Origin: Alphaproteobacteria bacterium | GTDB taxonomy: Bacteria; Pseudomonadota; Alphaproteobacteria; MPNO01; UBA830 | Direction: 5' to 3' | Assembly: GCA_965243135.1 (NCBI GenBank) | Contig: OZ251539.1 | Location: forward strand, 4,064,001-4,128,000 | DNA length: 64,000 bases | In this document: positions 6,945 through 28,422 of the stretch, piece by piece | How positions within the stretch are numbered: position 1 is the stretch's first letter | Layout: the number at the start of each line of letters is the position of its first letter | Made by a program: the position numbers and the translations under genes | Notes under the pieces: generated by a model | What the model was told of the DNA's origin: nothing | What the model saw: the letters and a program-made list of their open reading frames with translations, nothing else | Database searches by the model: none

Positions 6945-6952
6945 CGATCGAC

Positions 6953-7455: not shown

Positions 7456-7470
7456 GGCCGCTTCATCTCC

Positions 7471-7875: not shown

Positions 7876-8042
7876 GCAGCTTCATCGGCAGCCCGTCATC
7901 CTTCCGCGCTTAACTCTGCATCTCCGACGGCGCGATGCGCAGCGGGTTTCAACTTGACGTTCAGAGTCGTTCGTTTCCATGGAGTGGCCGGCGTTTGGTG
8001 GGCCGGAAGCCGACAGGGACATCCGTTCCTGCCTGCGCCGCC

Positions 8043-9017: not shown

Positions 9018-9199
9018 GGCGACCCCTCGGACCGGCGCGGCGCCGCGCATTCGCGCTTTCGGTCGCGGCGACCGCCGCGCGGCGGACGGAGCGGCGCGCA
9101 GCGAGTCGGCGACTGGCGGAGAACGCCTGCGCCTTGCATACTTCCGGACGAACCTCCTGCCGCCGCGCCGGACGGCGGGAACGACGGAGCACTCGACGA

Positions 9200-10651: not shown

Positions 10652-10668
10652 AGGACGCCCTTCGCGCT

Positions 10669-11256: not shown

Positions 11257-11299
11257 CGCGTCCTCTTCCTTGCCGGAGCTCGCGCGGTCGCGCCGGCCG

Positions 11300-11638
11300 T
11301 CAGGCGCCCTGGCCCGGTTTCTCGCTGAAGTGTTCCGCGAACTTGTTGGGCACCTCGCGCCAATCGTCCGCGTCGGGCGGGGACTCGCCCTTGCGGGTGA
11401 TGTTGGGCCAGACTTCGGCGTACTTCCGGTTCAGTTCGACGAACTCCTCGGAGGTATCGTCCGTATCCGGATGAATCGCTTCGACCGGGCATTCCGGCTC
11501 GCAGACGCCGCAATCGATGCATTCGTCCGGATGGATCACAAGCATGTTTTCGCCCTCGTAGAAGCAATCCACCGGGCAGACCTCCACGCAGTCCATGAAT
11601 TTGCACTTGATGCACGACTCGTTGACGATGTACGTCAT
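11300..11638 (-). CDS. fdxA: 7Fe ferredoxin
   Basis: [43 protein letters not shown]. Confidence 0.95.
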
Positions 11639-12016
11639 TCCACTCTCCGTCTCGCACTGTCAGGCGTTGTTCCCGAACGCCGGCCGCCGACGACAGGCCG
11701 ACCTGCTTTCCGGCAAACTAGTCTTTTTTGCGCAAGTGACCAACAGTTTTGTGCATCGAGGCGTTCGAGCCTCGCCGCCTTGCGCCGACCCGCTTCCGTC
11801 CGGCGCCCCGCGGTTCGCTCCGCCCGGCTCTCCGACGGCCCGAAGCGAGGCTCGCCGCCGCGCTCTCCGGCCGCGACCGGATCCCGTCGCCCTGCGCTGC
11901 CGTTCGCCGCGCCGGCGGCTTCCGGGCGGACGGCGGTTCCGGACCGGAAGATCCCGAGTCTTCCGCGCCGGGCGGGAAGAATATCCCGGGAAACCGTCCG
12001 CGCTTCGGAGCGCCGC

Positions 12017-12493
12017 TCAAGATCCCGCATTCTCGCGGTCGATGCGCGCCCGCACTCGCGACCTCGCGATTCCGCTGTCCCTGTCGTCGACGTAGATGAG
12101 GCCGGCGATCCGCCGCATGAGCTGCGCCTCGTGCGCCTCGACCACGCTGTCCGCGTAGACGACCTCCCACAGCATTTCCACGAGGTGCGTGCGCTCCTCG
12201 TAGGAAAAACCGTCCTTGATGGTTCGCGTGAAGCGCAGAAGCTGCACGGCCTCGCCGGCTTCGCGCTCGGCCGCCTCGATCAGCGCATGCGCTTCTTCGG
12301 CGGCGAGTTCGAAACGGTGCTCGCACAGCCACTCGATGCGGTCGCGCTCCGCGCGGTCGAATTCCCCGTCGACGGACGCGGCGTAGACCAGCAGCACGGC
12401 GGCGGCCAGGTGGAATTCGTCCGGCGTATGGCCTTCGTGACCCGCGGCGGCGGGCCGCTTATCCTCGAAGAATGACAGGAACCTGTCGAACAT
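12017..12493 (-). CDS. TerB family protein
   Basis: LAAAVLLV-AASVDG-FD--E; EMLWEVVYAD; E-QLMRRIAGL. Confidence 0.85.
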   Translation of the reverse strand: MFDRFLSFFEDKRPAAAGHEGHTPDEFHLAAAVLLVYAASVDGEFDRAERDRIEWLCEHRFELAAEEAHALIEAAEREAGEAVQLLRFTRTIKDGFSYEERTHLVEMLWEVVYADSVVEAHEAQLMRRIAGLIYVDDRDSGIARSRVRARIDRENAGS

Positions 12494-12539
12494 GGCGTGC
12501 TCCGCGCCTCCCGTCGGGGCGCCCGCGAGCGGAAGGCGT

Positions 12540-13187
12540 ATGAGCAAAATACCTGAAAACGCGCTTCATTTCCCGGCGACGCGCAGGAACCGGGATCCCA
12601 TCTCCGCGATTCTCGCCGACGTCCTGCCGGCGTCGGGCCTGGTGCTCGAGATCGCCAGCGGTTCCGGAGAGCACGCCGTTCATTTTTCTCGGCGGTTCCC
12701 GGCGCTGACCTGGCAACCCAGCGATCCGGACCCGGACAACCTCGCCAGCATCCGGGCGTGGGCGGAAGCGCAGCGGCCCGCGAACCTGTTGCCGCCGCTT
12801 CCGATAGACGCGTCGGACGAACGGCTGCCCCTGGACGGCGCGGACGCCGTGGTCTGCATCAACATGATCCATATCGCCCCGTGGGACGCCACCGCAGGCC
12901 TGATGCGAAACGCGGCCAGGCTGCTTCCGGCGCAGGGCCCGCTTTACCTGTACGGCCCCTTCATGCTCGACGGCGCGCACACCGCGCCGTCGAACGAAGC
13001 GTTCGACCGGCAACTTCGCCGGCAGGACAGCGCCTGGGGCGTCCGCGACCTCCGGGAGGTGACGGCCGAGGCGCAGCGTAACGGACTGCATCCGGCCGGC
13101 GTTTTCGAGATGCCCGCGAACAACCTCTCCGTGGTGTTCCGCAAGGCCGGCGGCCGGCTTCACGAGGCGCCGTCCACGCTTAAATAA
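12540..13187 (+). CDS. DUF938 family SAM-dependent methyltransferase
   Basis: RNRDPI, VLEIASGSGEH, INMIHIAPW, LYGPF, MPANN. Confidence 0.9.
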   Translation: MSKIPENALHFPATRRNRDPISAILADVLPASGLVLEIASGSGEHAVHFSRRFPALTWQPSDPDPDNLASIRAWAEAQRPANLLPPLPIDASDERLPLDGADAVVCINMIHIAPWDATAGLMRNAARLLPAQGPLYLYGPFMLDGAHTAPSNEAFDRQLRRQDSAWGVRDLREVTAEAQRNGLHPAGVFEMPANNLSVVFRKAGGRLHEAPSTLK

Positions 13188-13444
13188 AGGGAGCGCGCCT
13201 CGACGGAGGGTCCGCGCCGCGTCCCGAGCGATTCCACTCGAACGACCTGCACGGTCCCGGCCGCAGGGATCGTCAGAACGTCGCCGACGCGCACCGGATA
13301 GTGGGCTTTCCGAACGATTCGTCCGCCGACCCTGATCTTGCCGGCGTCGCATGTCCTGCTCGCGAGGCTGCGGCTCTTGAAGAAGCGGGCGCGCCAGAGC
13401 CATTTGTCGAGTCGAAGGGTCGGGTTTTCGACGGGCGGGTTCAC
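13160..13444 (-). CDS. S4-domain RNA-binding protein (Hsp15-like)
   Basis: RLDKWLWRARFFKSRSLA, RRGP--EAR-LY; GTGA overlap with the helicase stop. Confidence 0.9.
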   Translation of the reverse strand: MNPPVENPTLRLDKWLWRARFFKSRSLASRTCDAGKIRVGGRIVRKAHYPVRVGDVLTIPAAGTVQVVRVESLGTRRGPSVEARSLYLSVDGAS

Positions 13445-15864
13445 GAAAGCCGGAGTTCCCGAAGCTTCGCGAAGGGCGAATCCGAAGAAGGCTGCCGGTC
13501 GCGCCGCCCGCCCGGCCGGCGAACGGCGGCCGGGCGGTCCGCCCGCTTCCACGCCATTCCGTTTTCCGTGTCGCGGGAAGCGTAGCCGAGCGCTTCGAAC
13601 ACGGGCCGCGCCGCGTCCATGGACAGTCCGAGGAGATTGAGTTGCGCCGCGCCGATATCGAGCTTGCCCTCGCGCGACTGCCGCTGCAGATCGACCGCGA
13701 CCCGATCGAGAACGTCGATCCGAACCGCCCGTTCGCCGATTACCCTGTAGCCGCAGGCTTCGAGGAAGCCGGCGGGCGGGTCCGCCGGCACGGTGACGAG
13801 GCCGGCGGCGGGCGGCTCCCGAGGCGTCAGCGCCGCATCGACGGACCAGAGCAGCGCGCGCCACGCGACCGCCGCGGGCTTGACCAGCGACGGGACGAAA
13901 ACGGTCTCCGCGCCGAACCGGACGCCGCAGGAACGCAGCGCGGCGCGATCCTCCCGGGAAAGTTCCCGGACTTCGCGCGCGACGGATCGCCTCGGGACCG
14001 ACCCCAGGCCCTCGACGATGCGGTAGGCGATCCCGCGCGCGAGGCCGCGGAGTTCGGCGGCGCGGAGCGCCTCGAGAGGCGCCAGCGCTTCGGAAACGCG
14101 CGCGCCTGTCCAATCGGACAGGCGGCGGCGCACCGTCTCCTGCAAGGCCGCGCTCAGGTATTCCCCCGGCAGGAGCCTTATCGTCGGCGACAGAATGTCC
14201 GCCCCTTTCGTCAGCCGCGCGACGGCCGCGCCCGACCAGGAAAGGACGCCGTTCGCGGAGACCGCGAAGTCCGAATCCGGAGCCGCCGCGAGAGCGGCCG
14301 CGCGGGCCTCGATCTCGCGGCGCAGCGCGCCCGTCGGCGCGCCCGTCCCCGAGTCGTCGGCGACGAACCGGAATCCTTCGACGCGTCCGACGCGCTCGCC
14401 GCCCACGGCGACCTCGCCGTCTCCGCCCACCGTCGCTTCTCGCCGCGCGGCGGCGCGGCGGTCGACGAAGCGGCGGGTCAGACTGTCGTGGAGCGCGTCG
14501 GACAGTTTGTCCTCGAGGTCCCGCGTCCTGGCCTGCCAGGTCTCGGCGTCCGCAATCCATTCGGAACGGTACGAGATGTAGGTCCATGTCCGGACGTGGG
14601 CGATCCGGGCCATCAGCGTGTCGATGTCGCCGTCCGTTCTGTCGAGCGGAGCGATCTGCGCCGCCACCCAGTCGGCGGGAAGGCGGCCGCCGTCGCCGAG
14701 GTGGCGGAATATGCGGCCGAGCAAGACTGCATGAACGTCAGGCGTCGTCTTTCGGAAATCCGGAATCCGGCACACGTCCCACAGCAGCCGCACCGTATCG
14801 GGCGAAGAGGCGCGTCGGGCGAGCTCGGGATCGCGCGCCAGATGCGCCAGCGCGATCTGGTCGTCCGCCTCGCGGCCGCGCTCCAGTCCGGGCGCGGACG
14901 GCGGACGTTCCAGCGACCTGCGGAGCGCCGCCACGGAGCCGAAATCGAGATCGGCGTTGCGCCAGGAAACGCCGGCGATCGGATCGAACCGGTGCTCCTC
15001 CACCGCCGCCACGAGTTCGTCCTCGAAGGAGCCGATCTCCGCGATCGGTCCGAACGTGCCGTCGGAGAGGTGCCGGCCGGCCCGGCCGGCGATTTGCGCG
15101 ATCTCCGCCATCGCGAGGCGGCGGTAGGCGCGGCCGTCGAACTTGCGGATCCCGGCGAAGGCGACGTGATCGATCCTCATGTTGAGGCCCATGCCGATCG
15201 CGTCGGTCGCGACCAGAAAATCCACGTCGCCGTTCTGGTACAATTCCACCTGCGCGTTGCGCGTCCGGGGGCTCAGCGCGCCCAGCACGACCGCGGCGCC
15301 GCCGCGCCGGCGCATCAGTTCGGCGATGGCGTAAATCTCGTTGACGGAGAACGCGACGACGGCGCTGCGCCGCGGCAGCCGCGTGATCTTGCGCGGGCCG
15401 GCGTAGCTCAGCCTGGAAAGCCGCGGACGGCTCACGTGTTCGACGCCGGGCGCCAGCGACCGGATCAGCGGCCCCATGCTCGCGGCGCCGAGGAACATGG
15501 TTTCGCGGCGTCCGCGGGCGCGCAGCAGGCGATCCGTGAATACGTGGCCGCGCTCGGGGTCGGCGCACATCTGGATCTCGTCGACCGCGAGGAAATCCAC
15601 CTCCCGGCCGACGGGCATGGCCTCGACGGTGCAAAGGAAATAGTTCGCGCGGGGCGGAACGATCTTCTCTTCGCCGGTGACGAGCGCGGTCCGCGCCCTT
15701 CCCCGGAGAGCGACGACCCGGTCGTAGTTCTCGCGCGCAAGCAGGCGCAGCGGAAAACCGATCATGCCGGAATCGTAATCGAGCATCCGGTCAATCGCGT
15801 GATGCGTCTTGCCGGTGTTCGTGGGGCCGAGAACAGCCGTCAGGCGGGGCAGCCGGGCGGACAT
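13441..15864 (-). CDS. SUV3/MgpS-like SF2 helicase
   Basis: LGPTNTGKT, VDEIQ, VATDAIGMGLN, QIAGRAGR, C-terminal DSPFAKL. Confidence 0.9.
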   Translation of the reverse strand: MSARLPRLTAVLGPTNTGKTHHAIDRMLDYDSGMIGFPLRLLARENYDRVVALRGRARTALVTGEEKIVPPRANYFLCTVEAMPVGREVDFLAVDEIQMCADPERGHVFTDRLLRARGRRETMFLGAASMGPLIRSLAPGVEHVSRPRLSRLSYAGPRKITRLPRRSAVVAFSVNEIYAIAELMRRRGGAAVVLGALSPRTRNAQVELYQNGDVDFLVATDAIGMGLNMRIDHVAFAGIRKFDGRAYRRLAMAEIAQIAGRAGRHLSDGTFGPIAEIGSFEDELVAAVEEHRFDPIAGVSWRNADLDFGSVAALRRSLERPPSAPGLERGREADDQIALAHLARDPELARRASSPDTVRLLWDVCRIPDFRKTTPDVHAVLLGRIFRHLGDGGRLPADWVAAQIAPLDRTDGDIDTLMARIAHVRTWTYISYRSEWIADAETWQARTRDLEDKLSDALHDSLTRRFVDRRAAARREATVGGDGEVAVGGERVGRVEGFRFVADDSGTGAPTGALRREIEARAAALAAAPDSDFAVSANGVLSWSGAAVARLTKGADILSPTIRLLPGEYLSAALQETVRRRLSDWTGARVSEALAPLEALRAAELRGLARGIAYRIVEGLGSVPRRSVAREVRELSREDRAALRSCGVRFGAETVFVPSLVKPAAVAWRALLWSVDAALTPREPPAAGLVTVPADPPAGFLEACGYRVIGERAVRIDVLDRVAVDLQRQSREGKLDIGAAQLNLLGLSMDAARPVFEALGYASRDTENGMAWKRADRPAAVRRPGGRRDRQPSSDSPFAKLRELRLS

Positions 15865-16248: not shown

Positions 16249-17424
16249 CTACGCCGCATCGAACGCCGAAAGCGATCCCAGCGCATTCAGGACCAGATTG
16301 GCCGCGGTTTCGATGTCTTCGTCCGTAGTGAAGCGGCCGAAGCTGAACCGAATGGAAGAATCGCATTGCAACGCCGCGAGGCCCAAGGCCCGGAGCACGT
16401 GCGACGGTTCGGGAATTCCGGTGGCGCAGGCCGCGCCGGTGGCCGCCGCGAGCCGAGGCTGAAGCGCGCCAAGAATGTCCCGGGCGTCGAAACCGTCGAA
16501 CCTGACGTTGGCGTTGCCTGGATGTCGGCTTTCGCCGCTCGCGCCGTTGAGGACGGCGGAGGGATGTCCGTTCCGCAGGCGCGCCACGAACGAATCCCTC
16601 CGCCGTTCCGTACGGGATCGTTCCTTCGACGCCTCCGGACTTCGCGCGAGGTCGGCCGCCGCCGCCATACCGACGCACAAAGGAACCGGAAGCGTTCCGG
16701 AGCGCAATCCCTCCTGTTGCCCGCCTCCGTAGATCAACGGCTCCACGCGATCATGCAAATCGCGCCGAATGCGCAAAGCGCCGATGCCCTGCGGGCCGTA
16801 CATTTTGTGTCCCGAGAGACTCACGAGGTCGGCGTGACCGGCGAGGCCGCTTACGTCCACCGCGGACGGCGCCTGCGCGGCATCGCAATGAAGAGGAATG
16901 CCGCGCTGCGCGAGCAGAGCGGATATCCTCGGCACGTCCTGTATCGTCCCTACTTCGTTGTTGACCGCCATTACGGAAACCACCAGCACGTCGTCATCGA
17001 GCATCCGCTCCAGGCAGCCGAGATCCAAAAACCCTTCGCGGTCCACCGGTATCGTTTCGAACGAAAATCCCTCGCGCTCCGAAAGCGAACGGGCGGCCGC
17101 AAGCACGCATTTGTGCTCGATCGCCGATGCCAGGATGCGCTTGCGTCCCGCGGGCGCCCGCCGCGCTAGGCCAAGCAGCGCCAGGTTGTTGGATTCCGTG
17201 GCCCCGGACGTGAAGACGATCTCGTCGGCGTCGGCGCCGATCAACGCCGCGACCGCTTCCGCCGCTTCCCGCACCGCCTTGTCCGCTTGCCAGCCGACCG
17301 CGTGATCGATCGAATGCGGGTTGCCGAACGATTCGCTCCAATACGGCACCATCCTGTCCGCGACGCGCGGGTCGAGAGGCGTGGTTGCCTGATAATCGGC
17401 GTATATCGTTACGTTTTCGGCCAC
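16249..17424 (-). CDS. cysteine desulfurase (IscS/DndA/SspA-like)
   Basis: YADYQATTP, FGNPHS, FTSGATESNN, HCDAAQ, SGHKMYGPQG (PLP lysine), ATGAACATG (catalytic Cys); start codon uncertain. Confidence 0.9.
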   Translation of the reverse strand: MAENVTIYADYQATTPLDPRVADRMVPYWSESFGNPHSIDHAVGWQADKAVREAAEAVAALIGADADEIVFTSGATESNNLALLGLARRAPAGRKRILASAIEHKCVLAAARSLSEREGFSFETIPVDREGFLDLGCLERMLDDDVLVVSVMAVNNEVGTIQDVPRISALLAQRGIPLHCDAAQAPSAVDVSGLAGHADLVSLSGHKMYGPQGIGALRIRRDLHDRVEPLIYGGGQQEGLRSGTLPVPLCVGMAAAADLARSPEASKERSRTERRRDSFVARLRNGHPSAVLNGASGESRHPGNANVRFDGFDARDILGALQPRLAAATGAACATGIPEPSHVLRALGLAALQCDSSIRFSFGRFTTDEDIETAANLVLNALGSLSAFDAA

Positions 17425-17520
17425 GGCAGGGGCGCATTCCGATTGCCGACGGGGTTTTTGACGATACCCTGCCCATGGGCTATTGTCGAACTGGAGGGAT
17501 CGTCCAGAGCGGGGATGTAG

Positions 17521-18444
17521 ATGCTGAGGGGGCCACTCCATGCCGACGGCTACCGTCCGCAACTTTCCGGCCACGAAACGTTCCCTCTGCGGTACGGATG
17601 GCTCAAGAAGGCGGTCGATGCGGCCTCGGCGGATTCGCGCGACAACCGCGACAAGTCGATTTTCCTTTCGGACGACGCGATCGCCCGCCTGGGCGTCGGC
17701 AAGAACATGGTCGCGTCAATGCGCCATTGGGCGACGGCGGCGGGCATGATCGAAGAAAGACGCGGCAAGATCGCGACCACGCCCCTCGGAAAGCGGATAT
17801 TCGGTCCCCGCGGGCTGGATCCGTACATGGAGAATCCCGCCACGTGCTGGCTCGTTCACTGGCGGCTTTGCAGCAACGACCGCAAAACGACCTGGTTCTG
17901 GGCGTTCAATCACTATCCTGCGGCATCGTTCGAGCGAGACGCTCTGGTCCAGGGAATAGAAAAACTCTCCAGAGACCGAGGCTGGCGCAGGACGGCGATT
18001 TCCACCATCAGAAGCGACGTCGCCTGCTTCGTGCGGACCTACGCGTCCTTGCCGTCTTCCAGGAAGGACAGCTACGAAGAGACTCTGGAGTCGCCGCTGG
18101 CCGAGCTCGGGCTCGTTCGGCCGATCGGAAAACGGGACGGATTTCGGTTCGTGCGCGGACGGAAACCGTCTCTTGGAAGCGGAGTCTTTTGCTTCGCACT
18201 CACCGAATCCTGGCCCTCGGAGTCGCAGACCCTTGCCTTCGAAACGCTGGCTCACGAGCCCGGCTTCCCCGGGCGGGTGTTCCAACTTGACGAGAACGAC
18301 CTGGCTGACCGGCTTTCCGATATCGAGGAAACGAGCGGCGGCCGCTACGCTTGGTCGGAAACGGCCGGCCTGAAGCAGGTGCTTCGCAAGCGTCCGGTGA
18401 GCGAAGCGGAAGCGCTTCTCTTCCTCGAAGCGGACTATACGTAA
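17521..18444 (+). CDS. DUF4007 family protein (SspB-like)
   Basis: SGHETFPLRYGWLKK, LGVGKNMVASMRHW, DPYMENPAT-WL-HW, ESPLAELGL, WSETAGLKQ. Confidence 0.85.
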   Translation: MLRGPLHADGYRPQLSGHETFPLRYGWLKKAVDAASADSRDNRDKSIFLSDDAIARLGVGKNMVASMRHWATAAGMIEERRGKIATTPLGKRIFGPRGLDPYMENPATCWLVHWRLCSNDRKTTWFWAFNHYPAASFERDALVQGIEKLSRDRGWRRTAISTIRSDVACFVRTYASLPSSRKDSYEETLESPLAELGLVRPIGKRDGFRFVRGRKPSLGSGVFCFALTESWPSESQTLAFETLAHEPGFPGRVFQLDENDLADRLSDIEETSGGRYAWSETAGLKQVLRKRPVSEAEALLFLEADYT

Positions 18445-21400
18445 TGCCACTCGCGGATCGGGTTCAGGTTTCACGGCGCTTCCAGCGGGCGGTTCGGATC
18501 GATACCGATTTCGGGGACGCTCTCGAAGGATACGTCTGTCCCCGATCGTCAACCAACGTTCTTGAAAACATGGCGCACCAGGTTTCCGAAAGCGGACAAG
18601 GCGCCTTCACCTGGACCGGGCCTTACGGCAGCGGCAAATCGAGTCTCGCGGTCGCCTTCGGCGCCGTCCTCGGCGGCAAAATCCAGCCGGAGCCGATATT
18701 CGGCCGGGAAACGTCCGCGATCCTGAAGCATGCCTTTCCCCCCAGACCGGTTCTTCCGGTCGTAGGCCGGAGGGAGCGCCCGGCAACGGTGATCGGCGAG
18801 GCGCTCTCGAATCTGACGACCGGCCGGAAGCGGCGAAGCTGGACGGAAAAGCAGGCGCTCGACGCGATCGGAGACATTTCGACGCGCGGCCCCGGCCTTC
18901 TCGTGCTCATCGACGAAATGGGCAAATTCCTGGAAGCGGCGGCGCGCGACGGATCGGACATCCATATTTTTCAACAGTTGGCCGAAATCGCGTCGAGAAG
19001 CGGCGGACGTTTGATCCTCGTCGGCATTCTGCATCAGGCGTTCGAGGAATACGCGCATCGGCTGTCGAGAGAAATGCGAAGCGAATGGTCGAAAATCCAG
19101 GGCCGTTTCATGGACCTCGCCGTCAATGCCGGCGGCGAAGAGCAGATCGACCTGCTCGGGCGCGCGATCGAAAGCGACCGCACGGCGGAACCTGCCGGCG
19201 CGCTGGCCGAAGGCGTCGCTCGCCTCTCCCGAAACTCCACGTCTCCGCATCTGGCCAAGACGCTGGAAGACTGCTGGCCGTTGCACCCAATCGTCGCATG
19301 CCTGCTCGGCCCCATATCGCGGCGGCGTTTCGGCCAGAACCAGCGCAGCGTATTCGGCTTTCTGAATTCCGCGGAACCCGAGGGATTTCAGGACTTCATT
19401 CTCAACGCGGGCGACGACGACCTCTACGGTCCCGATCGTCTGTGGGACTACCTCCGGATCAATCTCGAATCCGCCATACTCGCCTCGCCGGACGGACATC
19501 GCTGGGCGTTGGGGGTGGACGCCCTGGGCCGCTGCGAGGCGTTGGGGGGAGAAGCGCTGCATCTTCGTTTGCTCAAAACGGTCGCGATCGCGGATCTGGT
19601 CAAGGATCGCTCCAGACTGCCCCCGAGCGAGGAACTGTTGAAATACGCCGCATACGATTGCGAACGGCGGAAAATCGACGGCGCCTTGGAGCAGTTGCAA
19701 CAATGGTCTCTGATCGTCTTCCGGAAGTTCGCGGACGCTTATTCGCTCTTCGAGGGCAGCGACTTCGATATAGAGCGCGCAGTGGAGCAGGCGTCCGAGA
19801 GCGAGGTCGACTTCGAAGCGCTCAATTCGATGGCCCGCCTTCAACCGATCGTGGCCAAGCGGCACTATCACGAGACAGGCGCGCTTCGTTGGTTCGACGT
19901 ACGCATCGTCTCTTTGGCGCGATCCGAGGAGGAAGCCGTTGGCTATCAGCCGCGCAACGGCGCCATCGGAGCCTTCTTTCTCGCGATCCCGACGCAAGGC
20001 GAAGCCGAAGACGAGGCAAATGCGATTTGCCGCCGGATCGCCAAACGCAGCCGGGATATGGCGATCGTCGTCGGACTGTCGCGGCACAGCTGGAGCGTCC
20101 CCGCCTCGGCGATCGAATTATTGGCGCTTGAACGGGTGCGCGACGAGTCCGTCGAACTTCAAGGCGACCGCGTAGGTCGGATCGAGGTTCAAGCGCGCAT
20201 AGCAGGGCTGCAGGCACAGCTCGAAACCGAGCTGGAACGCGCCTTCGACCGCGCCTCCTGGTTCCACGGAGACGCCGGAGCAAGAACGCTCAGGCAGGCG
20301 GATCTCAACAGCTTCGCGTCCGATCTCGCCGAAGATATGTTTCCCTGCGCACCGCATCTTCCTAACGAGCTTCTCAACCGGACGAAGCCATCGAGCAGCG
20401 CAAGCGCCGCTCGCAACTCTCTACTGAAGAGAATGGTTCAAAAGGAAGGAGAGGAACGTCTGGGCATCGACGGTTATCCTGCCGAGCTCGGGCTTTTTGC
20501 ATCCCTGCTGGAGGCGACGAAACTGTATCGTCCGGCTGGGGATGCATGGCAATTTACCCCCCCCCCCCCCCCCAGAAAATGACGATTCTCATAACCTAAG
20601 CCTCGCGTGGCACGCGGTTGAATCCTATTTGAAATTAGAAACTCGCCGCGCAGTATCCCTAAGCGAGATATATTCAGTTTGGCGGCGTCCGCCTTTCGGA
20701 ATCAAAGACGGGCTGTTGCCCGTCCTGGCGGTGGCGTTCATTCTGTCTCGGCGAAAAATATTGGCGCTCTATCGCGAAGGGATATTCCAACCCCGCCTAT
20801 CGGAGCTCGACGTAGACTATATCCTCGGGGATCCGGCCGACATTCAATTGCGCTGGATGACGCTGTCCGAAACGTCGCGTCGTCTTCTGTCCGACATGGC
20901 CGAGGTCGTGCGCGAACTCGACAGCGAAAATGCGCTCAACGATCTTGAGCCTATCGACGTCGCCAGAGGTCTGGTGACGATCTACGATCGGCTGCCGCCT
21001 TGGGTCGGACGTACCCAGCGCCTTTCGCCCAACGCGAAACACATCAGAACGTTGCTGAAGAAGGCGAACGATCCCAACCGGCTTATCTTCGACGACATTC
21101 CAAGCGTATTGAGCGACGGCAAGAACGGTTCCGTCGAACGCGTCGCCAGCCGGGTCGGAGAAGGCCTGACGGAACTGCAAAAAGCATTTCCGGCGATGCT
21201 GTCCAGGATGAGAGAAATTTTGCTGGCGGAATTGGAGGTTCCGTACGCTTCGCCGCCGATGCTGGCGGAACTTCGGGCGCGTGCGGAGAACGCGCTCGAC
21301 CTTGCGGGGGATCATCGATTGCGGGCCTTTATCGTCCGTCTTTCGCGTTTCGAGGGGAAAGACGAAGATATGGAGAGTCTCGCGAGCATGGCCATCAACA

Positions 21401-21762
21401 AGCCGCCGCGCGACTGGGTCGACCCCGATATCGACCGCGCCCTCATCGCGCTGGCCGAAATGGCCCAACGTTTCGTGCGCCTGGAAGCGTTCGCCCATGT
21501 CAATGGGCGCAAGGACAAGAGGCACGCGATGGCCATGGTCGTCGGTCTGGACGGGCGCCCGGCGACGCTGCATGCCGAATTCGACGTCACCGATCTCGAC
21601 CGGCCCGGCGTCGAGTCGCTGCTCGATCGCATGGCATCGACATTAAAGGACAGCGGCGAGGAACGGCGCAACGTGATCCTGGCGGCGCTGTCCGAATTAA
21701 GCGCTCAATACCTGCAAACTTCCGGAAACGCCCATCGGCCGATGGAGCGGACCCTCACATGA
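18444..21762 (+). CDS. large P-loop ATPase (SspC-like), split by a +1 frameshift at a C17 tract
   Basis: RRFQRAVRIDTD, Walker A GPYGSGKS, Walker B LIDEMGK, WPLHP, FGQNQRSVFGFL; upstream ORF stops at 20582 just after C17; the downstream frame continues (PPFGIKDGLLPV) to 21762; removing one C gives 1105 aa. Confidence 0.8.
20557..20573 (+). repeat. C17 homopolymer tract (candidate contingency repeat)
   Basis: 17 consecutive C, directly counted; the only such long run I saw in the window. Confidence 0.9.
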
Positions 21763-22589
21763 CGGAATGGCATGTCCTGGGGCTGTCGGGCGGGCGCGAC
21801 AGCGCCGCTCTCGCCGTCCATATGCGCGAGACGCATCCGGAGATCGACATCGAGTACTTTTTCACGGACACCGGAAAGGAGTTGCCGGAGGTCTACGAGT
21901 TCCTGGTGAAGCTGGAAGGCTTTCTGGGCAAACCGATCGTCCGCCTCAATCCCGACCGCGACTTCGATTTCTGGCTGAAGCGCTACAAGAACTTCCTGCC
22001 GTCGCCCCAATCCCGATGGTGCACGCGGCAACTGAAGCTTCGGCCTTTCGAGAACTGGATCAGATCGGCTCTGGATAACGGGACGAAGGTTTTCAGTTAC
22101 GTCGCCATTCGGGCGGACGAAGAATACAGGGAAGGTTACGCCGCGACGCACGCGGGGCTAAGCGTCCGGCTCCCCCTGAAAGAGGCAGGCGTCGATAAGT
22201 CCGGGGTATTGGAAATACTGGAAGGGGCCGGTCTGGGCTTGCCGGAGTACTACCGCTGGCGCACTCGCAGCGGGTGCACGTTCTGCTTCTTTCAACAAAA
22301 AATCGAGTGGGTTCGACTAATGGAACAGCACCCCGAGTATTTCGAAGAAGCCAAGCGCTACGAGAAAACCGCCGTCGAAAACGGTTCTCCCTTCACCTGG
22401 AGTCAGGGGGAATCGCTCAATGACTTGTCTCAACCCCAGCGGATCGCGCAAATCAAAGAAAATCACCAACGCCGGGTCGAAAGAATGCGCGACCGAATTC
22501 AGCTGAATCCGCTTCGGCCGGATAGAGAGCCAGTAGATATGGATGAAATCTACGGCAAGGCGAAGGCTTGCTTGGCGTGCCACAAATGA
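21759..22589 (+). CDS. PAPS reductase family protein (SspD/DndC-like)
   Basis: PP-loop LSGGRDS, FTDTGKELPE, RWCTRQLK, RSGCTFCFFQ, C-terminal CLACHK; ATGA overlap with the ATPase stop. Confidence 0.88.
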   Translation: MTEWHVLGLSGGRDSAALAVHMRETHPEIDIEYFFTDTGKELPEVYEFLVKLEGFLGKPIVRLNPDRDFDFWLKRYKNFLPSPQSRWCTRQLKLRPFENWIRSALDNGTKVFSYVAIRADEEYREGYAATHAGLSVRLPLKEAGVDKSGVLEILEGAGLGLPEYYRWRTRSGCTFCFFQQKIEWVRLMEQHPEYFEEAKRYEKTAVENGSPFTWSQGESLNDLSQPQRIAQIKENHQRRVERMRDRIQLNPLRPDREPVDMDEIYGKAKACLACHK

Positions 22590-24199
22590 TGTCCGCTAGT
22601 TCAACACAACCCGGGCTTTCGCCGGAACGGATTTTCGAAGCCCTCGACGATGATCAGGCAACGCGCATTCTGCCCGGTGGCGCGTTCAAACTGATCCGTG
22701 AACTCGCCCCGGACCGGATCTCGGGGCAGAGGCGCGCCGAAACGTTGGGGAACATGTTGTCTCTCGAATCGGCCGTGGACGATCCAGATCGAAGGAGCGT
22801 TCTTTTGGATGCCGTACCCAACTTCAAGATAGCCGAGCTCGAAGAGAGAACCGAAACAGATATCGTGACGCTGCGGCGAAAACTGGATTTGGAGAAGTCG
22901 GTTCGACGGGCGCTTCTGGGTTTCTTCGGCGCTCCCACGTTCGACGAAGTGCCTGCCGACTCCCGCGGCGATGCGATGGCGGTGGAACCGGCGCGGGGCT
23001 TGTTCCCCCACCAGAAGCGCGTCGCGAGCGCCGTGGAGAAACATCTGCATTCCGGAGAAGGACGCGCCATGCTGCACCTTCCCACGGGTGTCGGTAAAAC
23101 GCGGGTCGCCATGAGCATCGTCGCCTCGCACCTTCGGACTCGCCCGGGGCTGGTACTGTGGCTGGCTGCCACTCGGGAACTTCTGGAGCAGGCAGCGGAA
23201 GAGTTTCGGGCAATGTGGCAGGTCGTTGGAGACCGCCCGATCGATTGCCTTTGCTTCTGGTCGCACCACGATCCGCCCATCGAAGAAGCAGAGTCCGGTA
23301 TCGTCATCGCTGGCTTGGCTAAGCTCCACTCTTACGGAAGAGAGAGGAAGCGGCTGTGGAATCTCGGCAATCGAACCTCGATGATGGTGTTCGACGAAGC
23401 TCACCAAGCTGTCGCCGAGACCTATCAGGACCTGGTCGAAACGATCGTCACCCGAAATCCTAGAACGCCGCTTCTCGGACTCAGCGCAACGCCGGGTCGC
23501 ACATGGGACAACCCCGCGATCGACGCGGCTGTCGCAACATTGTTCCAGGAAAACAAGGTTACGATGGATTTCTTGGGGAAAAACCCGATCCGGCACCTCA
23601 CGGATGAAGGCTACCTCGCCGAAATCGATTTCTCGCTATTGAACGTCAAGCCAGGATTGCGACTTTCGCCCGACGATCTTGCGGAGGTATCAGCCTCGCT
23701 GGATATCCCGGCCGGCGTCGCCGTCAGGCTAGGCGAGGACGAGCAGCGAAATCTCCGCATTGTTCAGAGATTGCTGCAACTGTCGGATGCGCATCGGCGC
23801 ATTCTGGTTTTCGCCGCCTCGGTTGCCAACGCGACGCTTCTAGCAGGTATATGCAAAGGCATTGGGCTTGAAGCCGACGCCGTCACCGGCAAGACAGCCC
23901 CGGCATTGCGCGAGCATGTGATTCAGCGGTTCAAGCGGTCGAGCGGTCCTCACAGGGTGTTGATAAATTACGGCGTGCTGACGACAGGGTTCGACGCCCC
24001 TGCAGTAAGTGCTGTGCTCATCGCAAGGCCGACAAAGTCTTTAGTTCTATACAGCCAGATGGTGGGACGGGCAATCCGCGGACCATTGGCTGGAGGGACG
24101 GAGCGCTGCGAAATCGTAACGGTAATCGATACGAACCTGCCGGGCTTCGGTGACGTGGCCGAGGCATTCACGAATTGGGAAGATGTCTGGAGTTGCTGA
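22586..24199 (+). CDS. DEAH-box SF2 helicase (ResIII-like)
   Basis: LPTGVGKT, FDEAH, GLSATP, TTGFDAP, QMVGRAIRG; ATGA overlap with the upstream gene. Confidence 0.9.
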   Translation: MMSASSTQPGLSPERIFEALDDDQATRILPGGAFKLIRELAPDRISGQRRAETLGNMLSLESAVDDPDRRSVLLDAVPNFKIAELEERTETDIVTLRRKLDLEKSVRRALLGFFGAPTFDEVPADSRGDAMAVEPARGLFPHQKRVASAVEKHLHSGEGRAMLHLPTGVGKTRVAMSIVASHLRTRPGLVLWLAATRELLEQAAEEFRAMWQVVGDRPIDCLCFWSHHDPPIEEAESGIVIAGLAKLHSYGRERKRLWNLGNRTSMMVFDEAHQAVAETYQDLVETIVTRNPRTPLLGLSATPGRTWDNPAIDAAVATLFQENKVTMDFLGKNPIRHLTDEGYLAEIDFSLLNVKPGLRLSPDDLAEVSASLDIPAGVAVRLGEDEQRNLRIVQRLLQLSDAHRRILVFAASVANATLLAGICKGIGLEADAVTGKTAPALREHVIQRFKRSSGPHRVLINYGVLTTGFDAPAVSAVLIARPTKSLVLYSQMVGRAIRGPLAGGTERCEIVTVIDTNLPGFGDVAEAFTNWEDVWSC

Positions 24200-24200
24200 A

Positions 24201-26075
24201 ATGGACCAACAACAGGAATTTGATTTTTCGATCGTCTCGGCCAAGCTCACGATCGAGGCCATGCGCGATAGCGGATACAAGGATACGGATCATGCGATTA
24301 CGGAACTTATCGATAATTCCGTAGAAGCGAAAGCTGACACCATCGAGATCATCGCTGTCGAGACTCCTCCAGAGCACGGCCAATTCTTTGCACGCTCCAA
24401 AGTGACTGAAATCGCCGTGGCTGACAATGGTCATGGAATGGATGAAGTTACGCTTAGGCGAGCGTTGAAGTTCGGCGATGGGACGAAACTTGATCGCATG
24501 AATCGTGGAATAGGAAGATTCGGTATCGGCCTACCACAATCCTCGATTTCTCAGTGCAAGCGCGTTGACGTCTGGACATGGCAAAATGGGCATGACAATG
24601 CCATCCGTTGTTATCTCGATATCGATGAAATCAAAACTCAGAATCGCTCGATCGTGCCGGACGCATTCCCGGATGCAGTTCCTGAACGGTGGCGATCAAT
24701 CGCGGGGAGCACATCCGAATCTACAGGAACGTTGGTCGTATGGAGTAAACTGGATCGCGTCAAATGGAGTGGCGGACAAAAAACCCTTGAGCGGACCGCA
24801 GAGCATTGTGGCCGGGTTTACAGAAAATTTCTGGACGGTCAATCCAATAAAATCTCTATTGATCTTGTGCTTGCCTTCGACGCAGACGGTACATTGGAAC
24901 AGACTTCATCACAGCAGTGCTATCCTAACGATCCTCTTTATCTTATGAATAATACCTCTACACCTAAGCCTTTCGATAATATCCCCATGTTCGAAAAATT
25001 TAATGAACGCAGATGGGAGGTGCCGGCGGCTGGTGTGCAAGGCAATCTTCGTGGCGAAATTAAAGTTGTATGTTCGCTTGCTCGTCTTGACGCAATTAAT
25101 CAAACTAAATCTACAATCACATGGCCATCTACGCACTATAATCCCGGAAGTTCGCCGTGGGGCAAACACGCGAATCGCAACAAAGGAGTTTCTATCGTCC
25201 GTGCCGGTAGGGAGTTGGAAATGAGCCTCGCTTGGGTAAATAACTACGAACCAGAGGAGCGGTGGTGGTCAGTAGAAGTCGAATTCGATCCATTACTCGA
25301 CGAATTATTTGGGGTAGTAAACAACAAGCAGCACGCTCACGCTTTCGTCAATGGCGCTGGTTTCGATTATACAGCACATATTTTTGATGGTGAAACACAA
25401 GGTGCTTTTCTAGAGAGGCTGCAAGAAACTGAAGACGATAGTCGTTATTTAATTCCGGTTTGGCAATGGATAGATAATCAGATTAAAGCGATGCGAAATG
25501 AGTACGATAAGAGGAAGGAAGGTACACGAACACGTCACCCACATCCGCAGACGGGTGAAGAAGTCGAAGACGTCGCGACAAAGATCATCAAAGAACAAGC
25601 AGAAAAAGGAGAAAAAGGCGACAGCGACAACGCTCCCGAAACGAGCCTTGAAGAAAAGGTTAAAATGATAACCAACTCGGCAAAGCAGAAGCGGGTAGAC
25701 GAACCAACAGCGGAGGAATGGGCAAGAGAAGTTATCGAAAGCGGGCGACGGGTGTTAATGAAAGCTGTTACATTAGGGCACAAAAATGCATTCTTCACCG
25801 TCGAATCTGTGAACGACATTATCGAAGTCTGGCTCAATCACGAACACCCAGTTTATCATAATCTTATAGAAGGATTGTCTAAAGATTTTGAAGGTGCAAC
25901 GCAGGACGAGCTGGTAAAGCGGCTGAAAAATGCATCGTTTACCCTCAATATGATGTTGATAGCTTGGGCTCGGTACGAAGATAAAACTCCGAACAGACTC
26001 GAATGCACTCTTGAGGACATGAGAATGGATTGGGGTAGAGAAGCTCGAAAATTCCTAGAGTCCATCGAATCATGA
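24201..26075 (+). CDS. MORC-like GHKL (HATPase) ATPase
   Basis: MRDSGYK...ELIDNS, IAVADNGHGM, GIGRFGIGL; no histidine kinase H-box; visibly AT-richer than the flanks. Confidence 0.8.
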   Translation: MDQQQEFDFSIVSAKLTIEAMRDSGYKDTDHAITELIDNSVEAKADTIEIIAVETPPEHGQFFARSKVTEIAVADNGHGMDEVTLRRALKFGDGTKLDRMNRGIGRFGIGLPQSSISQCKRVDVWTWQNGHDNAIRCYLDIDEIKTQNRSIVPDAFPDAVPERWRSIAGSTSESTGTLVVWSKLDRVKWSGGQKTLERTAEHCGRVYRKFLDGQSNKISIDLVLAFDADGTLEQTSSQQCYPNDPLYLMNNTSTPKPFDNIPMFEKFNERRWEVPAAGVQGNLRGEIKVVCSLARLDAINQTKSTITWPSTHYNPGSSPWGKHANRNKGVSIVRAGRELEMSLAWVNNYEPEERWWSVEVEFDPLLDELFGVVNNKQHAHAFVNGAGFDYTAHIFDGETQGAFLERLQETEDDSRYLIPVWQWIDNQIKAMRNEYDKRKEGTRTRHPHPQTGEEVEDVATKIIKEQAEKGEKGDSDNAPETSLEEKVKMITNSAKQKRVDEPTAEEWAREVIESGRRVLMKAVTLGHKNAFFTVESVNDIIEVWLNHEHPVYHNLIEGLSKDFEGATQDELVKRLKNASFTLNMMLIAWARYEDKTPNRLECTLEDMRMDWGREARKFLESIES

Positions 26076-27028
26076 TCCTGCTTGGAGAGCAGGTTTCATC
26101 TCTTCTCGAATCTGCGAAGAAAAGCGCATTGATTGTTGCACCGTTCATGCGTTCGGAAGCGCTGTCTAGACTACTGAATCATGTTCCGAACGATGTTGAA
26201 ACCACGATTGTTACGCGGTGGAGATTGGCGGATTTGCTTTCGGGCGCGTCGGATCTTGGCGTCTACGATCTAGCCGACGCAATGAATGCCGATCTGTTAT
26301 TGCGGTCCAATTTGCATGCCAAGCTGTTCGCCGCGGATAACAAATGTTTGGCGGGATCGGCCAACGTTACTTTTTCGGCGCTCGGGTGGCTGAAACCAGC
26401 CAACCTCGAATTGCTGATTTCTGTGCGTCGAGACGACGCGCTTATAGTCGAGTTTGAACGAGAACTTAAAGCCGGAGCGGTTCGAGCGACCGTGGCGCAA
26501 AGGGACCAACTCCAGAATTCTCTCGATCAGCTCCAGAATTCGACCTATGTGATTTCACCGGCGGAGGACGGCACACGAGCAACAGGCTTGCTGAACTCGT
26601 ACTGGATCCCCCGAATCAAAAACCCGGAAGATCTCTACGCGGTCTACAGTGGCAATGCCGACGCGGGCCAACCGCTCTTGCGAATCATGCGAGATGAACT
26701 GGCCGGGATCGGGGCACCGTCGGGACTGGATGAAGAAGGATTCAGGGCGTGGGTGGCTGGAACGATTACCCAAACACCGTTCTTTGCTGCGCTCACGAAG
26801 CACTTCGAAGGACACGGCGAGGTGACCGAGGCCGAGGTCGCGAGCATCTTGCAGGAATTTGGTGAGGAGGCGCACAACGCCCGAGAAATGCTGGAAATTG
26901 TCGGGCGTTGGTTTACATATTTCTTGCGGGAGCCCCACGAGACAGCGAGAGATACCGTCAAGCTGATCAAGGCTAAACGTTTCGGGTCCGCTTGGGTGCA
27001 ACGAGGGAATTCGGCTGCATCCGACTGA
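26072..27028 (+). CDS. phospholipase D-superfamily nuclease-like protein
   Basis: IVAPF, LHAKLF...AGSANVT...NLEL: a single HxK/SxN PLD motif; ATGA overlap. Confidence 0.8.
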   Translation: MILLGEQVSSLLESAKKSALIVAPFMRSEALSRLLNHVPNDVETTIVTRWRLADLLSGASDLGVYDLADAMNADLLLRSNLHAKLFAADNKCLAGSANVTFSALGWLKPANLELLISVRRDDALIVEFERELKAGAVRATVAQRDQLQNSLDQLQNSTYVISPAEDGTRATGLLNSYWIPRIKNPEDLYAVYSGNADAGQPLLRIMRDELAGIGAPSGLDEEGFRAWVAGTITQTPFFAALTKHFEGHGEVTEAEVASILQEFGEEAHNAREMLEIVGRWFTYFLREPHETARDTVKLIKAKRFGSAWVQRGNSAASD

Positions 27029-27328
27029 ATGCACTTATCGATCGCTGCCGCACTCCGAGGAATTTGGTGCGCGGGTACCGGAAAAATGGCCGGCAACTGC
27101 GTCCGCCGCGTCCGGGACCCTACGGAGCGTTTCGGAAGGTCGCAGTCGCCGCGCGCCCATTCTCAAGGGCGCCATAGCTTGGTTCGACGGGCCGTTCCGC
27201 AGTTCGCGCGATCTCTTGGGCCTTGGCGATACGCAATCCGTCGTCGAGGATTTCATCGATATTCTCGGGAGGCTTCCGCGACCGCCAACCGCATTCTCTT
27301 CCGGATCGCAAGTTTCCCGACAAGCGCC

Positions 27329-27358
27329 TTGACACCTTCCAATCCGCTTTACGACAAT
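27329..27358 (+). promoter_or_regulatory. candidate sigma70 promoter for clpS
   Basis: TTGACA-N18-GACAAT. Confidence 0.45.
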
Positions 27359-27467
27359 GAACCGTCGCGGGAGGAGGAGCGGACAGGCATGCAGCCGTCG
27401 CGCCGTGCTGCCGCGCCTCCGACGCAAGCGGATTCGGACGAGCGATGATTCCAGGCTGGAGGTCCGA

Positions 27468-27767
27468 GTGAACGATACCGTCGTCGCGCCAACCGCCGAG
27501 ACGCGGACAAAACGCCCGCGTCTCTACAAGGTCGTCCTCGAGAACGACGACTACACGCCCCGGGAATTCGTCGTCCTCGTGCTCAAAAAGGTCTTTCGCA
27601 TGTCGGCGGAAGAAGCCTATCGCGTCATGATGACCGCCCACTCGAAGGGACTTTGCGTCGTCGCGGTCTATACGAAGGAAGTCGCGGAAGCCAAGGCGGC
27701 GGAAGCGACCGATCTCGGACGCCGTGCGGGCCATCCGCTCCTCCTGACGATCGAGCCCGAGGAGTAG
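27468..27767 (+). CDS. clpS: ATP-dependent Clp protease adaptor ClpS
   Basis: PRLYKVVLENDDYTPREFVV-VL, VMMTAH-KG, VAEAKA, PLLLTIEPEE; GGAGG RBS. Confidence 0.92.
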   Translation: MNDTVVAPTAETRTKRPRLYKVVLENDDYTPREFVVLVLKKVFRMSAEEAYRVMMTAHSKGLCVVAVYTKEVAEAKAAEATDLGRRAGHPLLLTIEPEE

Positions 27768-27929
27768 AGCGACGCTCCGGCGTCGCGGTGCGCCCTGCCT
27801 GCCCTGTCTCGTCCCGGCGCAAGCCGGAGGCAGAGTCCGGCCGAAGAACGGCCCGGCTCGCCCTCGTTCCGATTTTCCTTGCCGCCGCGCCGCCGGCCGC
27901 ATACCATCCTGCGCGGGAGACACGCCGAA

Positions 27930-28400
27930 TTGTTCACCTTGAGCCATACGATGCCGGTCAACGCTTCCGGGGGTCCGGCGCTCGCCCGTCGGCACCTCTG
28001 GCAAGGCCTGGTGCTGAAGGCGGAGAACCCGGTGCCCTTCCTGGAGGACATGACCGCCTGCACCGTCGTGGAGCGGAGCGAGAACGGGCTGCTGCGCGAC
28101 TTCACCCTTCGCGGCGAGAACATGCAGGAACGCGTCGCTTTCGAACCCGAGACGCGCGTCGTCTTCGAACGGACGAAGAGCTCCGCCATGGGCACGATCG
28201 TCAACGAGATCGTCGAGACGGAGGAGGACGGGCTGGCGCTGCGTTTCAGGTTTTCGCTGCAGGTCGACGGCATACCGCACGGCAGCGACGAGGAACGGGC
28301 CTATGCGGAACGGATGTCGCGGAGCTACTTCAAGGGCGTCGCCTCGACATTGGCCGAGATTCGCCGCCGCTTGACGGCCGGAGAACTGGAAACCACCTGA
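27930..28400 (+). CDS. SRPBCC/AtaL-like (DUF1857) protein
   Basis: PVN...LWQGLVLKAENPVPFL...C-VVER...R...E-V pattern. Confidence 0.7.
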   Translation: MFTLSHTMPVNASGGPALARRHLWQGLVLKAENPVPFLEDMTACTVVERSENGLLRDFTLRGENMQERVAFEPETRVVFERTKSSAMGTIVNEIVETEEDGLALRFRFSLQVDGIPHGSDEERAYAERMSRSYFKGVASTLAEIRRRLTAGELETT

Positions 28401-28422
28401 CCAACATGCGGAGGCTACGACC

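Follow-up and report, generated by a model that had tools for sequence, protein, structure and literature searches.

A seven-gene phosphorothioation island with a helicase, a GHKL ATPase, and a PLD protein as its candidate restriction arm in an alphaproteobacterium

In 2020, Xiong reportedly described SspABCD-SspE as a defense system based on DNA phosphorothioation (PT). Modification genes of the Ssp type also occur in an island of seven genes in an Alphaproteobacteria genome, at positions 16249-27028 of a 64-kb window (the whole stretch of DNA analyzed, G000 C1:4064001-4128000), where they stand beside three genes encoding a superfamily 2 (SF2) helicase, a GHKL ATPase, and a protein of the phospholipase D (PLD) family, collectively called the trio here. 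We compare this island with the closest described systems, and we consider it probable that the island is a horizontally acquired, seven-gene PT restriction-modification (R-M) system with the trio as its unnamed, ATP-dependent restriction arm.

Described phosphorothioate systems and the island

The PT restriction branches named in a 2025 review are limited to dndFGH/sspFGH, sspE, and pbeABCD. Among 2,678 sspBCD loci, 2,211 (83.9%) carry neither SspE nor SspFGH (Wang 2021, PMC8092258), so the original prediction for this stretch overstated the case in describing the Ssp module as normally paired with one of these two. SspABCD-SspE and SspFGH resemble the island in having the same modification module and a restriction cassette directly beside sspBCD (PMC8092258). 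Their effectors, in contrast, are unrelated to those of the island: SspE has DUF262/DUF1524 domains, and SspFGH, which is compared here by its description, includes an SspF with a Walker A motif and an SspH with an FtsK/SpoIIIE-like C terminus (cassette A1QU_04845-04855; PMC8092258), whereas the island encodes an SF2 helicase, a GHKL ATPase, and a PLD protein with a predicted winged-helix domain. The seven genes, one on the minus strand (sspA) and six on the plus strand, and one intergenic feature are as follows.

16249..17574 (maximal open reading frame [ORF]), minus strand: sspA, cysteine desulfurase (IscS/DndA-like); Aminotran_5 5e-75, PADLOC SspA 5e-126, DndA 5e-124
17458..17489, no strand assigned: divergent promoter-like hexamer pairs between sspA and sspB; consensus matches only
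17521..18444, plus strand: sspB (DUF4007); Pfam DUF4007 8e-88, PADLOC SspB 1.5e-101
18444..21762, plus strand: sspC, BrxC-like ATPase with a +1 frameshift; PADLOC SspC PDLC02780 in two frames
21759..22589, plus strand: sspD, PAPS-reductase-family sulfurtransferase; PADLOC SspD 5e-133, Pfam PAPS_reduct 9e-6
22586..24199, plus strand: SF2 (DEAH) helicase/translocase, RadD/XPB-like, 537 amino acids (aa); Pfam ResIII, DEAD, Helicase_C
24201..26075, plus strand: GHKL (GHL-type) ATPase, 624 aa; Pfam HATPase_c_3 3.5e-22
26072..27028, plus strand: single-HKD PLD protein with a predicted C-terminal tandem winged-helix domain; PLDc_2 1e-4, HKD motif

Gene identities come from Pfam, PADLOC (2.0.0), and NCBIfam profile searches of the island ORFs, by which all seven genes of the original prediction are present at these coordinates; its SspABCD architecture is likewise borne out, with PADLOC matching SspA, SspB, SspC (in a split frame), and SspD. 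The tight coupling that it had described can be read directly from the sequence at five junctions. From sspB through the PLD gene, neighboring stop and start codons overlap or stand 1 nt apart (in order, TAATG, ATGA, ATGA, TGA-A-ATG, and ATGA, the sspC-sspD junction being an ATGA overlap), and these six genes look like one translationally coupled unit.

Several other described systems share parts of this hardware. MANTIS, or Gao_RL (10.64898/2026.09.23.753747), is similar in that self-identity is set by a DNA modifier together with a co-regulator and a BREX-related AAA+ ATPase and in that unmodified DNA is restricted by a SauUSI-like SF2-helicase/PLD nuclease, which is predicted to act once the writer complex has recognized its target. 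It differs in methylating adenine, whereas the island would phosphorothioate, and in that its MtsD is a helicase-PLD fusion, whereas the island has separate genes, a GHKL ATPase between the helicase and the PLD protein, and a predicted winged-helix domain on the nuclease. CglI and NgoAVII (PMC4267653, PMC5861437, PMC4267654) share with the island an SF2 motor and a PLD nuclease that are encoded apart; their nuclease ends in a DNA-recognition domain, as is predicted for that of the island. They have a Z1 domain on the motor, a C5-methyltransferase as modifier, and no GHKL subunit. In the prokaryotic MORC/paraMORC R-M operons, a GHKL+S5 ATPase is found with an SFII (Rad25-like) helicase and a nuclease, sometimes of the HKD type (PMC2292703), much as the original prediction had said of prokaryotic MORC ATPases; unlike the island, these operons are paired with DNA methylases, and PT is unmentioned in the accessible text of that paper. 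The archaeal, Dnd-linked PbeABCD system (PMC10853773) has in PbeA an HKD nuclease-SF2 helicase fusion linked to PT genes. The island differs in lacking PbeB, PbeC (a CxC ABC ATPase), and PbeD (DndE-like), in being linked to Ssp rather than Dnd, and in having a GHKL protein.

Known identities for the trio were examined individually. No DUF262/DUF1524 (SspE-type) domain was found by Pfam (E up to 0.01) in the seven island proteins or the scanned flanking ORFs, in agreement with the earlier observation that no SspE-like ORF is visible, and the nine GmrSD_N ORFs in the genome all lie outside the island; an SspE identity of the trio was rejected on the lack of these domains. The trio has no FtsK-like domain by Pfam or PADLOC and no SspF, SspG, or SspH name in PADLOC 2.0.0, which may lack SspFGH models. 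It does not fit SspFGH as that cassette is described in print, the comparison being with the description and not with SspF/G/H sequences. A PbeABCD identity, about which the original prediction had been in doubt, was rejected on domain content, as the island has only a partial, helicase-core match to PbeA and no ABC ATPase or DndE-like gene. No description of Ssp linkage to a helicase-GHKL-PLD trio was found in the literature, and the supplements of PMC8092258 and PMC10853773 may list such neighborhoods. The effector architecture of the trio is new for PT systems; the kind of island, PT-based restriction-modification, is already known.

Recurrence of the ssp-trio linkage

Loci were drawn from a genome collection (11), a metagenome collection (5), the phylum of the window genome (401 genomes), and three other phyla (401, 401, and 391 genomes), and a locus was counted where a member of the GHKL family stands beside a helicase. 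By this count, ssp genes adjoin the GHKL and helicase genes in 23 of 24 loci, representing at least eight phyla, and the one remaining locus is a short, uninformative contig. The linkage holds at GHKL identities of 25-36% and in three gene orders. What the original prediction had noted in this window is thus recurrent across multiple phyla, and the 23 of 24 linkages and the domain content uphold its proposal that the trio is a restriction or effector module tied to Ssp and different from SspE, Pbe, and, by description only, SspFGH.

In all 11 genome-collection loci, the ssp genes adjoin the helicase, GHKL, and PLD genes. These loci come from Terriglobia, Dadabacteria, Rhodobacteraceae, Paracoccaceae, Acidimicrobiia (three), Rhodothermales, Gemmatimonadota, Verrucomicrobiae, and "Multivorans." The contig of L002 ends inside the PLD gene, and no SspA was found in the examined flank of L010. 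In L011 (the "Multivorans" metagenome-assembled genome [MAG], 5840-15506), the ssp block is inverted and sspD lies outside the retrieved DNA; inserted DNA of ~1.2 to 1.5 kb interrupts each of its three trio genes. Many of the trio records come from sponge-associated MAGs.

Four of the five metagenome loci have ssp genes. The gene order of L012 is that of the window, and that of L013 is SspC, an Mrr_cat protein, SspA, helicase, GHKL, and PLD. In L014 and L015, sspB-C-D is followed by the PLD gene, and the helicase and GHKL genes run toward this block on the opposite strand, an arrangement indicating that the nuclease gene has moved into the writer operon. The uninformative locus (L016) lies on a contig of 4.7 kb and has a group II intron upstream.

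Within the window genome's own phylum, 22 of 401 genomes, G000 included, have a GHKL match at E up to 1e-10. All four genomes other than G000 with long matches (L031 to L034; GHKL identity 30-36%) have sspBCD, helicase, GHKL, and PLD genes, the arrangement in L034 being convergent and L033 carrying inserts. The four helicase-linked matches in the three other phyla (L055 to L058) all have sspC and sspD, with sspB also present in L057 and L058; a PLD gene was found in L055 (by Pfam), L057, and L058. Between sspD and the trio helicase of L056 (G865:C2), genes for a DUF262/GmrSD_N (SspE-like) protein and a NERD-SF1 helicase occupy 4403-8332. This gene content indicates that two kinds of effector can co-occur, and SspE is found together with SspFGH in some loci (PMC8092258). 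Relatives of the GHKL protein were also seen in other company. In L059 and L060 (G1353 and G1465), neither of which has ssp genes, a 517-aa GHKL protein that matches residues 9-378 only precedes a DruA-domain protein of 677 aa; this GHKL-DruA pairing is apparently distinct and undescribed. L061 has two GHKL genes, a DUF262 gene, a desulfurase fragment, and an insertion sequence.

Identities to the proteins of the island are discordant among genes. In L004 they are 45% for SspD, 28% for SspC, and 60% for GHKL, and in L034 they are 64%, 41%, and 30%, respectively, from which it appears that the writer and trio lineages have repeatedly recombined. That they were recombined and yet kept adjacent argues for functional dependence rather than shared ancestry alone.

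The trio proteins, the sspC tract, and the setting of the island

The catalytic motifs are intact and conserved in all three trio proteins. In the helicase, motifs I, II, III, and VI are intact (GVGKT, DEAH, SAT, and QMVGRAIR in the translation), and among proteins of solved structure its sequence comes closest to RadD (6jde, 6e-27) and then to SauUSI and XPB/Rad25. Its N-terminal ~140 aa have no match and are missing from distant variants of 402 to 459 aa. The partial PADLOC match of the helicase core to PbeA (2.7e-18) covers positions 203-422 of the 672 in the model.

The GHKL protein consists of a Bergerat ATPase domain and S5 transducer (~5-447) and a conserved C-terminal region of ~180 aa. 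Invariant in 48 sequences are E35, D38, N39, D75xGxG, a G-rich lid, and K376 (in FGVVNNKQ). In VIA-align comparisons, residues 5-447 of the AlphaFold2 (AF2) model (mean confidence, pLDDT, 79.2) resemble SMCHD1 (Z 17.8, 334 residues aligned, root mean square deviation [rmsd] 4.2), MORC3 (Z 16.3, 293 aligned, rmsd 3.8), MutL (Z 16.3), and MORC2 (Z 15.4), and Foldseek agrees. The last ~160 residues give weak fold hints only, such as the HtpG C-terminal dimerization domain (Z 5.0). A profile search of the Protein Data Bank (PDB) matched MORC2 weakly (E 1.3e-3), phmmer with the protein itself found no PDB match at E up to 0.01, and in a protein atlas its homologue P0066 falls in generic "ATP-binding protein" clusters only. 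The modeled fold identifies the protein as a GHL-type clamp ATPase, for which the MutL, MORC, and SMCHD1 Z scores are tied within ~2. The "MORC-like ATPase" of the original prediction therefore holds for the GHKL fold, motifs I to IV, and the S5 transducer and is too narrow in singling out MORC, as MutL, MORC, and SMCHD1 score equally. A PADLOC match to MzaB is partial, covering the first ~200 residues only, and identity with MzaB of the Mza system was rejected (NCBIfam 89.7 bits versus a cut-off of 850, residues 35-239 only). The best 120 homologues are close and full length (59-74% identical), and the family comprises at least 501 clusters at 50% identity (E up to 1e-30).

Although the PLDc_2 score of the PLD protein (22.6 bits) is under Pfam's 27-bit cut-off, its HxKxxxxD...GSxN motif (H82, K84, D89, G95, S96, N98) is invariant in 40 of 40 homologues and kept in 12 of 12 diverse copies. 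In the AF2 model (pLDDT 86.8), the nuclease domain spans approximately residues 1 to 140/150 with one HKD copy per chain, and its fold matches SauUSI (Z 15.9, 140 aligned, rmsd 2.0), Nuc (14.8), BfiI (13.9), and the NgoAVII R-protein (11.4), as well as NucT; from this model, the protein is predicted to be an HKD nuclease of the Nuc/BfiI/SauUSI type. The C-terminal domain (~174-304) matches 3bhw (Z 7.3), BrxA (7.0, 126 aligned), N.BspD6I (6.5), FokI (5.8), and SspB (4.9) by fold and also many winged-helix regulators. BrxA, FokI, and SspB are described with one common tandem helix-turn-helix/winged-helix DNA-binding module, and the list of matches is coherent because these three share it. A profile of the PLD protein found nothing meaningful in the PDB, and PADLOC gave partial, low-scoring matches of its PLD domain to ZacB and DrmC. 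In CglI and NgoAVII, the DNA-binding domain is B3-like.

An ssp-less pair elsewhere in the genome (G000:C1:5426648-5428571; L030 6648-8571, minus strand) consists of a 315-aa paralogue of the PLD protein (30% identical, HKD intact) preceded by a 324-aa protein that is homologous only to the C-terminal half of the GHKL protein (residues 316-619). From this arrangement, the PLD protein may be functionally paired with the C-terminal region of the GHKL protein. Nearby, at L030 1-2145 (minus strand; G000 ~5420001-5422145), a single ORF combines a DruA domain (1.5e-35) with a DDE_Tnp_1 transposase domain.

Among the writer genes, sspB is the sole DUF4007 gene in the genome, the sspD translation shows an SGGRDS PP-loop, and the sspA product has NCBIfam IscS and DndA matches under their curated cut-offs. 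The real start of sspA is probably near 17406, because the family match starts at residue 57. The sspC gene is divided between two frames: frame 1 (18444-20582) matches positions 1-728 of the PADLOC SspC model (5e-268), and frame 2 (~20575-21762) matches positions 728-1044 of the same model (4e-101). They meet, with a +1 frameshift, at a C17 homopolymer inside the gene (20557-20573, plus strand), and a tract of C16 or C19 would put sspC back in frame. This is the only homopolymer of 8 nt or more in the window. It sits in a variable linker between conserved blocks and is lineage specific; in 11 of 11 genome-collection relatives, the sspC frame is uninterrupted, with no homopolymer at the site.

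The genome (6.10 Mb, 65.0% GC) has 55 poly-C/poly-G tracts of 10 to 21 nt, one poly-T tract of at least 10 nt, and no such poly-A tract. Tract lengths are bimodal (43 C7, 5 C8, 4 C9, and 2 C10 and then 4 to 5 each at C12 to C14 and C17). We scanned both flanks of 20 of the 55 tracts, those between the longest open frames, with Pfam (40 pieces). By gene, these 20 fall in five Type ISP R-M genes, one Eco57I-type methylase gene, one N6/N4 methylase gene, one gene for a DUF1156 protein, and three autotransporter genes; nine had no Pfam match, and many of the tracts leave the host gene out of frame. Examples of tracts are at genome positions 83194, 741106, 793994, 2085613, 2859508, 2228262, 1267195, 4859804, 230426, 881776, and 941684. 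The repertoire of contingency loci typically consists of R-M genes and surface proteins. The data suggest that this 65% GC bacterium, which public-run labels describe as sponge associated, has G/C-tract contingency loci throughout its genome. Because many of the scanned tracts fall in R-M and autotransporter genes, the sspC tract is most simply one more switch, and judging by the sequence it is likely a phase-variation switch.

Tract lengths were compared across public sequencing runs at the level of contigs, which cannot by themselves prove that the length varies. The sole contig spanning the sspC tract, 25.6 kb long and from run X7, matches the window exactly and probably gave rise to the assembly. 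In run X9, which has the same organism label, contigs stop at 20542 and resume at 20560, and at the tract there are short contigs of 54 to 58 nt with depths of 47, 5, and 5, versus 152 to 173 in the flanks. Run X1, a sponge metagenome from another study with a strain differing at ~0.5-4% of the compared positions, has one contig that continues with 10 more C. A contig from X1 also follows sspD to 22631 and then continues in unlike sequence, and no contig covers 22912-27135; the writer may have a different partner in that strain, although contigs cannot show the absence of the trio. No publication on phase variation with phosphorothioate and homopolymeric tracts was found that has phosphorothioation in its title or visible abstract.

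The window has ~66% GC, and across ~16.2 to 27.1 kb the GC content declines stepwise to 0.48 at the GHKL gene. A search of 20 related genomes, of which 4 belong to the same genus, 8 to the same family, and 8 to the same order, found no member of the GHKL family (E up to 1e-40). Low GC content, together with this result, points to horizontal acquisition of the island. The flanking genes are housekeeping genes (a Suv3-like helicase, a glyoxalase, CtaA, a Cys/Met PLP enzyme, and TrkH). At the island borders, neither an integrase nor a tRNA gene was found, and a search for att-like direct repeats returned only short, chance-like matches. The ~1.4 kb between the PLD and glyoxalase genes (27029-28420) contains ORFs without family matches and no recognizable gene and may be a decayed island edge. 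A terminator scan returned 15 candidates versus 14.1 expected from shuffled sequence, and the terminator and promoter scan carries no evidential weight.

Weighing the explanations

In the mechanism that we favor, SspA would supply sulfur and SspB, SspC, and SspD would put PT on host DNA, an established Ssp pathway that is assigned here by homology. The RadD/XPB-like SF2 motor would translocate along DNA, and the GHKL protein would act as an ATP-gated, dimerizing clamp that couples recognition to cutting and gates the nuclease. A clamp-like role of this kind in R-M operons was proposed for MORC in 2008, when Iyer, Abhiman & Aravind predicted that MORC/paraMORC proteins remodel or loop DNA during restriction (PMC2292703). 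The tandem winged-helix domain (BrxA/FokI/SspB type) would place the nuclease on DNA, where its single HKD would pair with that of a second copy to form one active site; the PLD protein probably dimerizes to cut, because Nuc, BfiI, and MtsD do, dimerization of the MtsD nuclease for cutting being described in the MANTIS preprint. As the original prediction proposed, the trio may read PT status. We prefer a complex that would attack DNA without PT and be licensed by the SspBCD machinery, with the C17 tract in sspC as a putative slipped-strand switch that is OFF in the assembly. Such a switch would be tolerable only if restriction is disarmed along with the loss of SspC or if the coupled genes farther down are silenced by polarity.

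The main rival is that the trio is an SspE-type, PT-sensing effector, in which contact with PT, through the winged-helix domain or SspBCD, activates nicking or degradation of incoming DNA. We think this unlikely. The NTPase and nicking activities of SspE, the Ssp partner known best, are indeed stimulated by PT (PMC8092258), and cells in the state of the assembly, in which sspC is OFF while the trio is intact, would be safe if the trio sensed PT; however, the trio has no sequence or domain similarity to SspE, and its closest analogues (SauUSI, CglI/NgoAVII, and MtsD of MANTIS) are site- or modification-directed motor nucleases and not PT-stimulated nickases. If real, the OFF state with an intact trio argues against an autonomous nuclease attacking any unmodified DNA. 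It fits writer licensing, PT-stimulated action, or polar silencing of the coupled genes, and among these we favor R-M logic with SspBCD licensing over a PT-stimulated, SspE-like mode. It seems very unlikely that the trio is an independent defense system (a Type IV or ISP-like motor nuclease) that shares a defense island with the ssp genes and has no dependence on PT. Defense genes do cluster in islands, this genome is rich in them, the trio and Ssp lineages are phylogenetically shuffled, and the second PLD paralogue, with its protein homologous only to the GHKL C terminus, has no ssp genes nearby. Independence is nevertheless difficult to reconcile with ssp genes adjoining the trio in 23 of 24 loci, across phyla and down to 25-36% identity, with the overlap of the sspD stop and the helicase start, or with L014 and L015, where the PLD gene belongs to the sspBCD operon and is separated from the helicase and GHKL genes. 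Since the helicase is closest to RadD and the ATPase to MutL among proteins of solved structure, and both of these act in repair, the trio might instead be an accessory of PT writing or repair, unwinding or nicking DNA so that SspBCD gains access or processing stalled PT intermediates, for example. This strikes us as exceedingly improbable, given that heterologous expression of IscS-SspBCD from V. anguillarum FF-93 yielded PT-linked d(CpsC) in E. coli JM109 (PMC8092258), that a nuclease of the Nuc/SauUSI/BfiI type with a FokI-like DNA-binding domain is typical restriction hardware, and that MORC/paraMORC with an SFII helicase and a nuclease is a known R-M theme (PMC2292703).

Several findings weigh against a functional, switchable R-M island, and some of them speak for a decaying pseudogene cluster in which sspC has no switch and its frameshift reflects either a fixed, inactivating mutation or a mistake in the assembly. 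The sspC gene is out of frame in the assembly, so this copy may simply be inactive, and the exact length of its tract could be an assembly error, as the only spanning contig (X7) probably comes from the source assembly itself. Long homopolymers are error-prone in sequencing. Decay is still rather improbable in our judgment: the other six genes are intact in frame and motifs, and the break falls exactly in a 17-nt homopolymer within a variable linker, in a genome with 55 such tracts, many in R-M and autotransporter genes. The tract is, moreover, where contigs of a second run end, and extra C appears there in a contig from another study. Of the remaining points on the contrary side, some concern the linkage: 17 genomes of the own phylum match only the N-terminal GHKL part and, like the N-terminal-only matches in G472 and G501 and the genome G453, which is flagged as unpublished, stand outside the 23 of 24 count, the GHKL relatives in L059 to L061 occur without a helicase and intact ssp genes, and no PLD gene was found in L056 by tblastn, the ORFs after its GHKL gene being outside the scan. 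Others concern the reading of PT. The fold matches of the PLD C-terminal domain, the sole hint of a modification-specific reader, have Z scores of 4.9 to 7.3, under the tool's caution line of 8. The idea that this domain is a sequence-level SspB paralogue was dropped (hhalign probability of 0.12 for PLD versus the SspB profile), and the fold hint remains. The direction of the response is not constrained by the sequence, as PT could protect from cutting or activate it.

Taken as a PT R-M island, the locus would have wider meaning. More tentatively, it is possible that the island represents a new class of PT R-M system, with a MutL/MORC-like clamp, a RadD-like motor, and a PLD nuclease bearing a FokI/SspB-like reader, licensed by SspBCD, spread to at least eight phyla by horizontal transfer, and phase variable in sspC. 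The trio would fill part of the gap left by sspBCD loci without a known restriction partner, and a MutL/MORC-type ATPase in a PT system would offer a tractable bacterial model for GHL clamps that gate a nuclease. If true, the sspC switch would be the first phase-variable phosphorothioation system, one element of a G/C-tract "phasevarion" that spans the genome and takes in Type ISP and other R-M genes. Such a switch, if real, would constrain the mechanism, in that restriction must be harmless when the writer is off, and it would extend phase variation from methylation-based R-M to modification of the DNA backbone.

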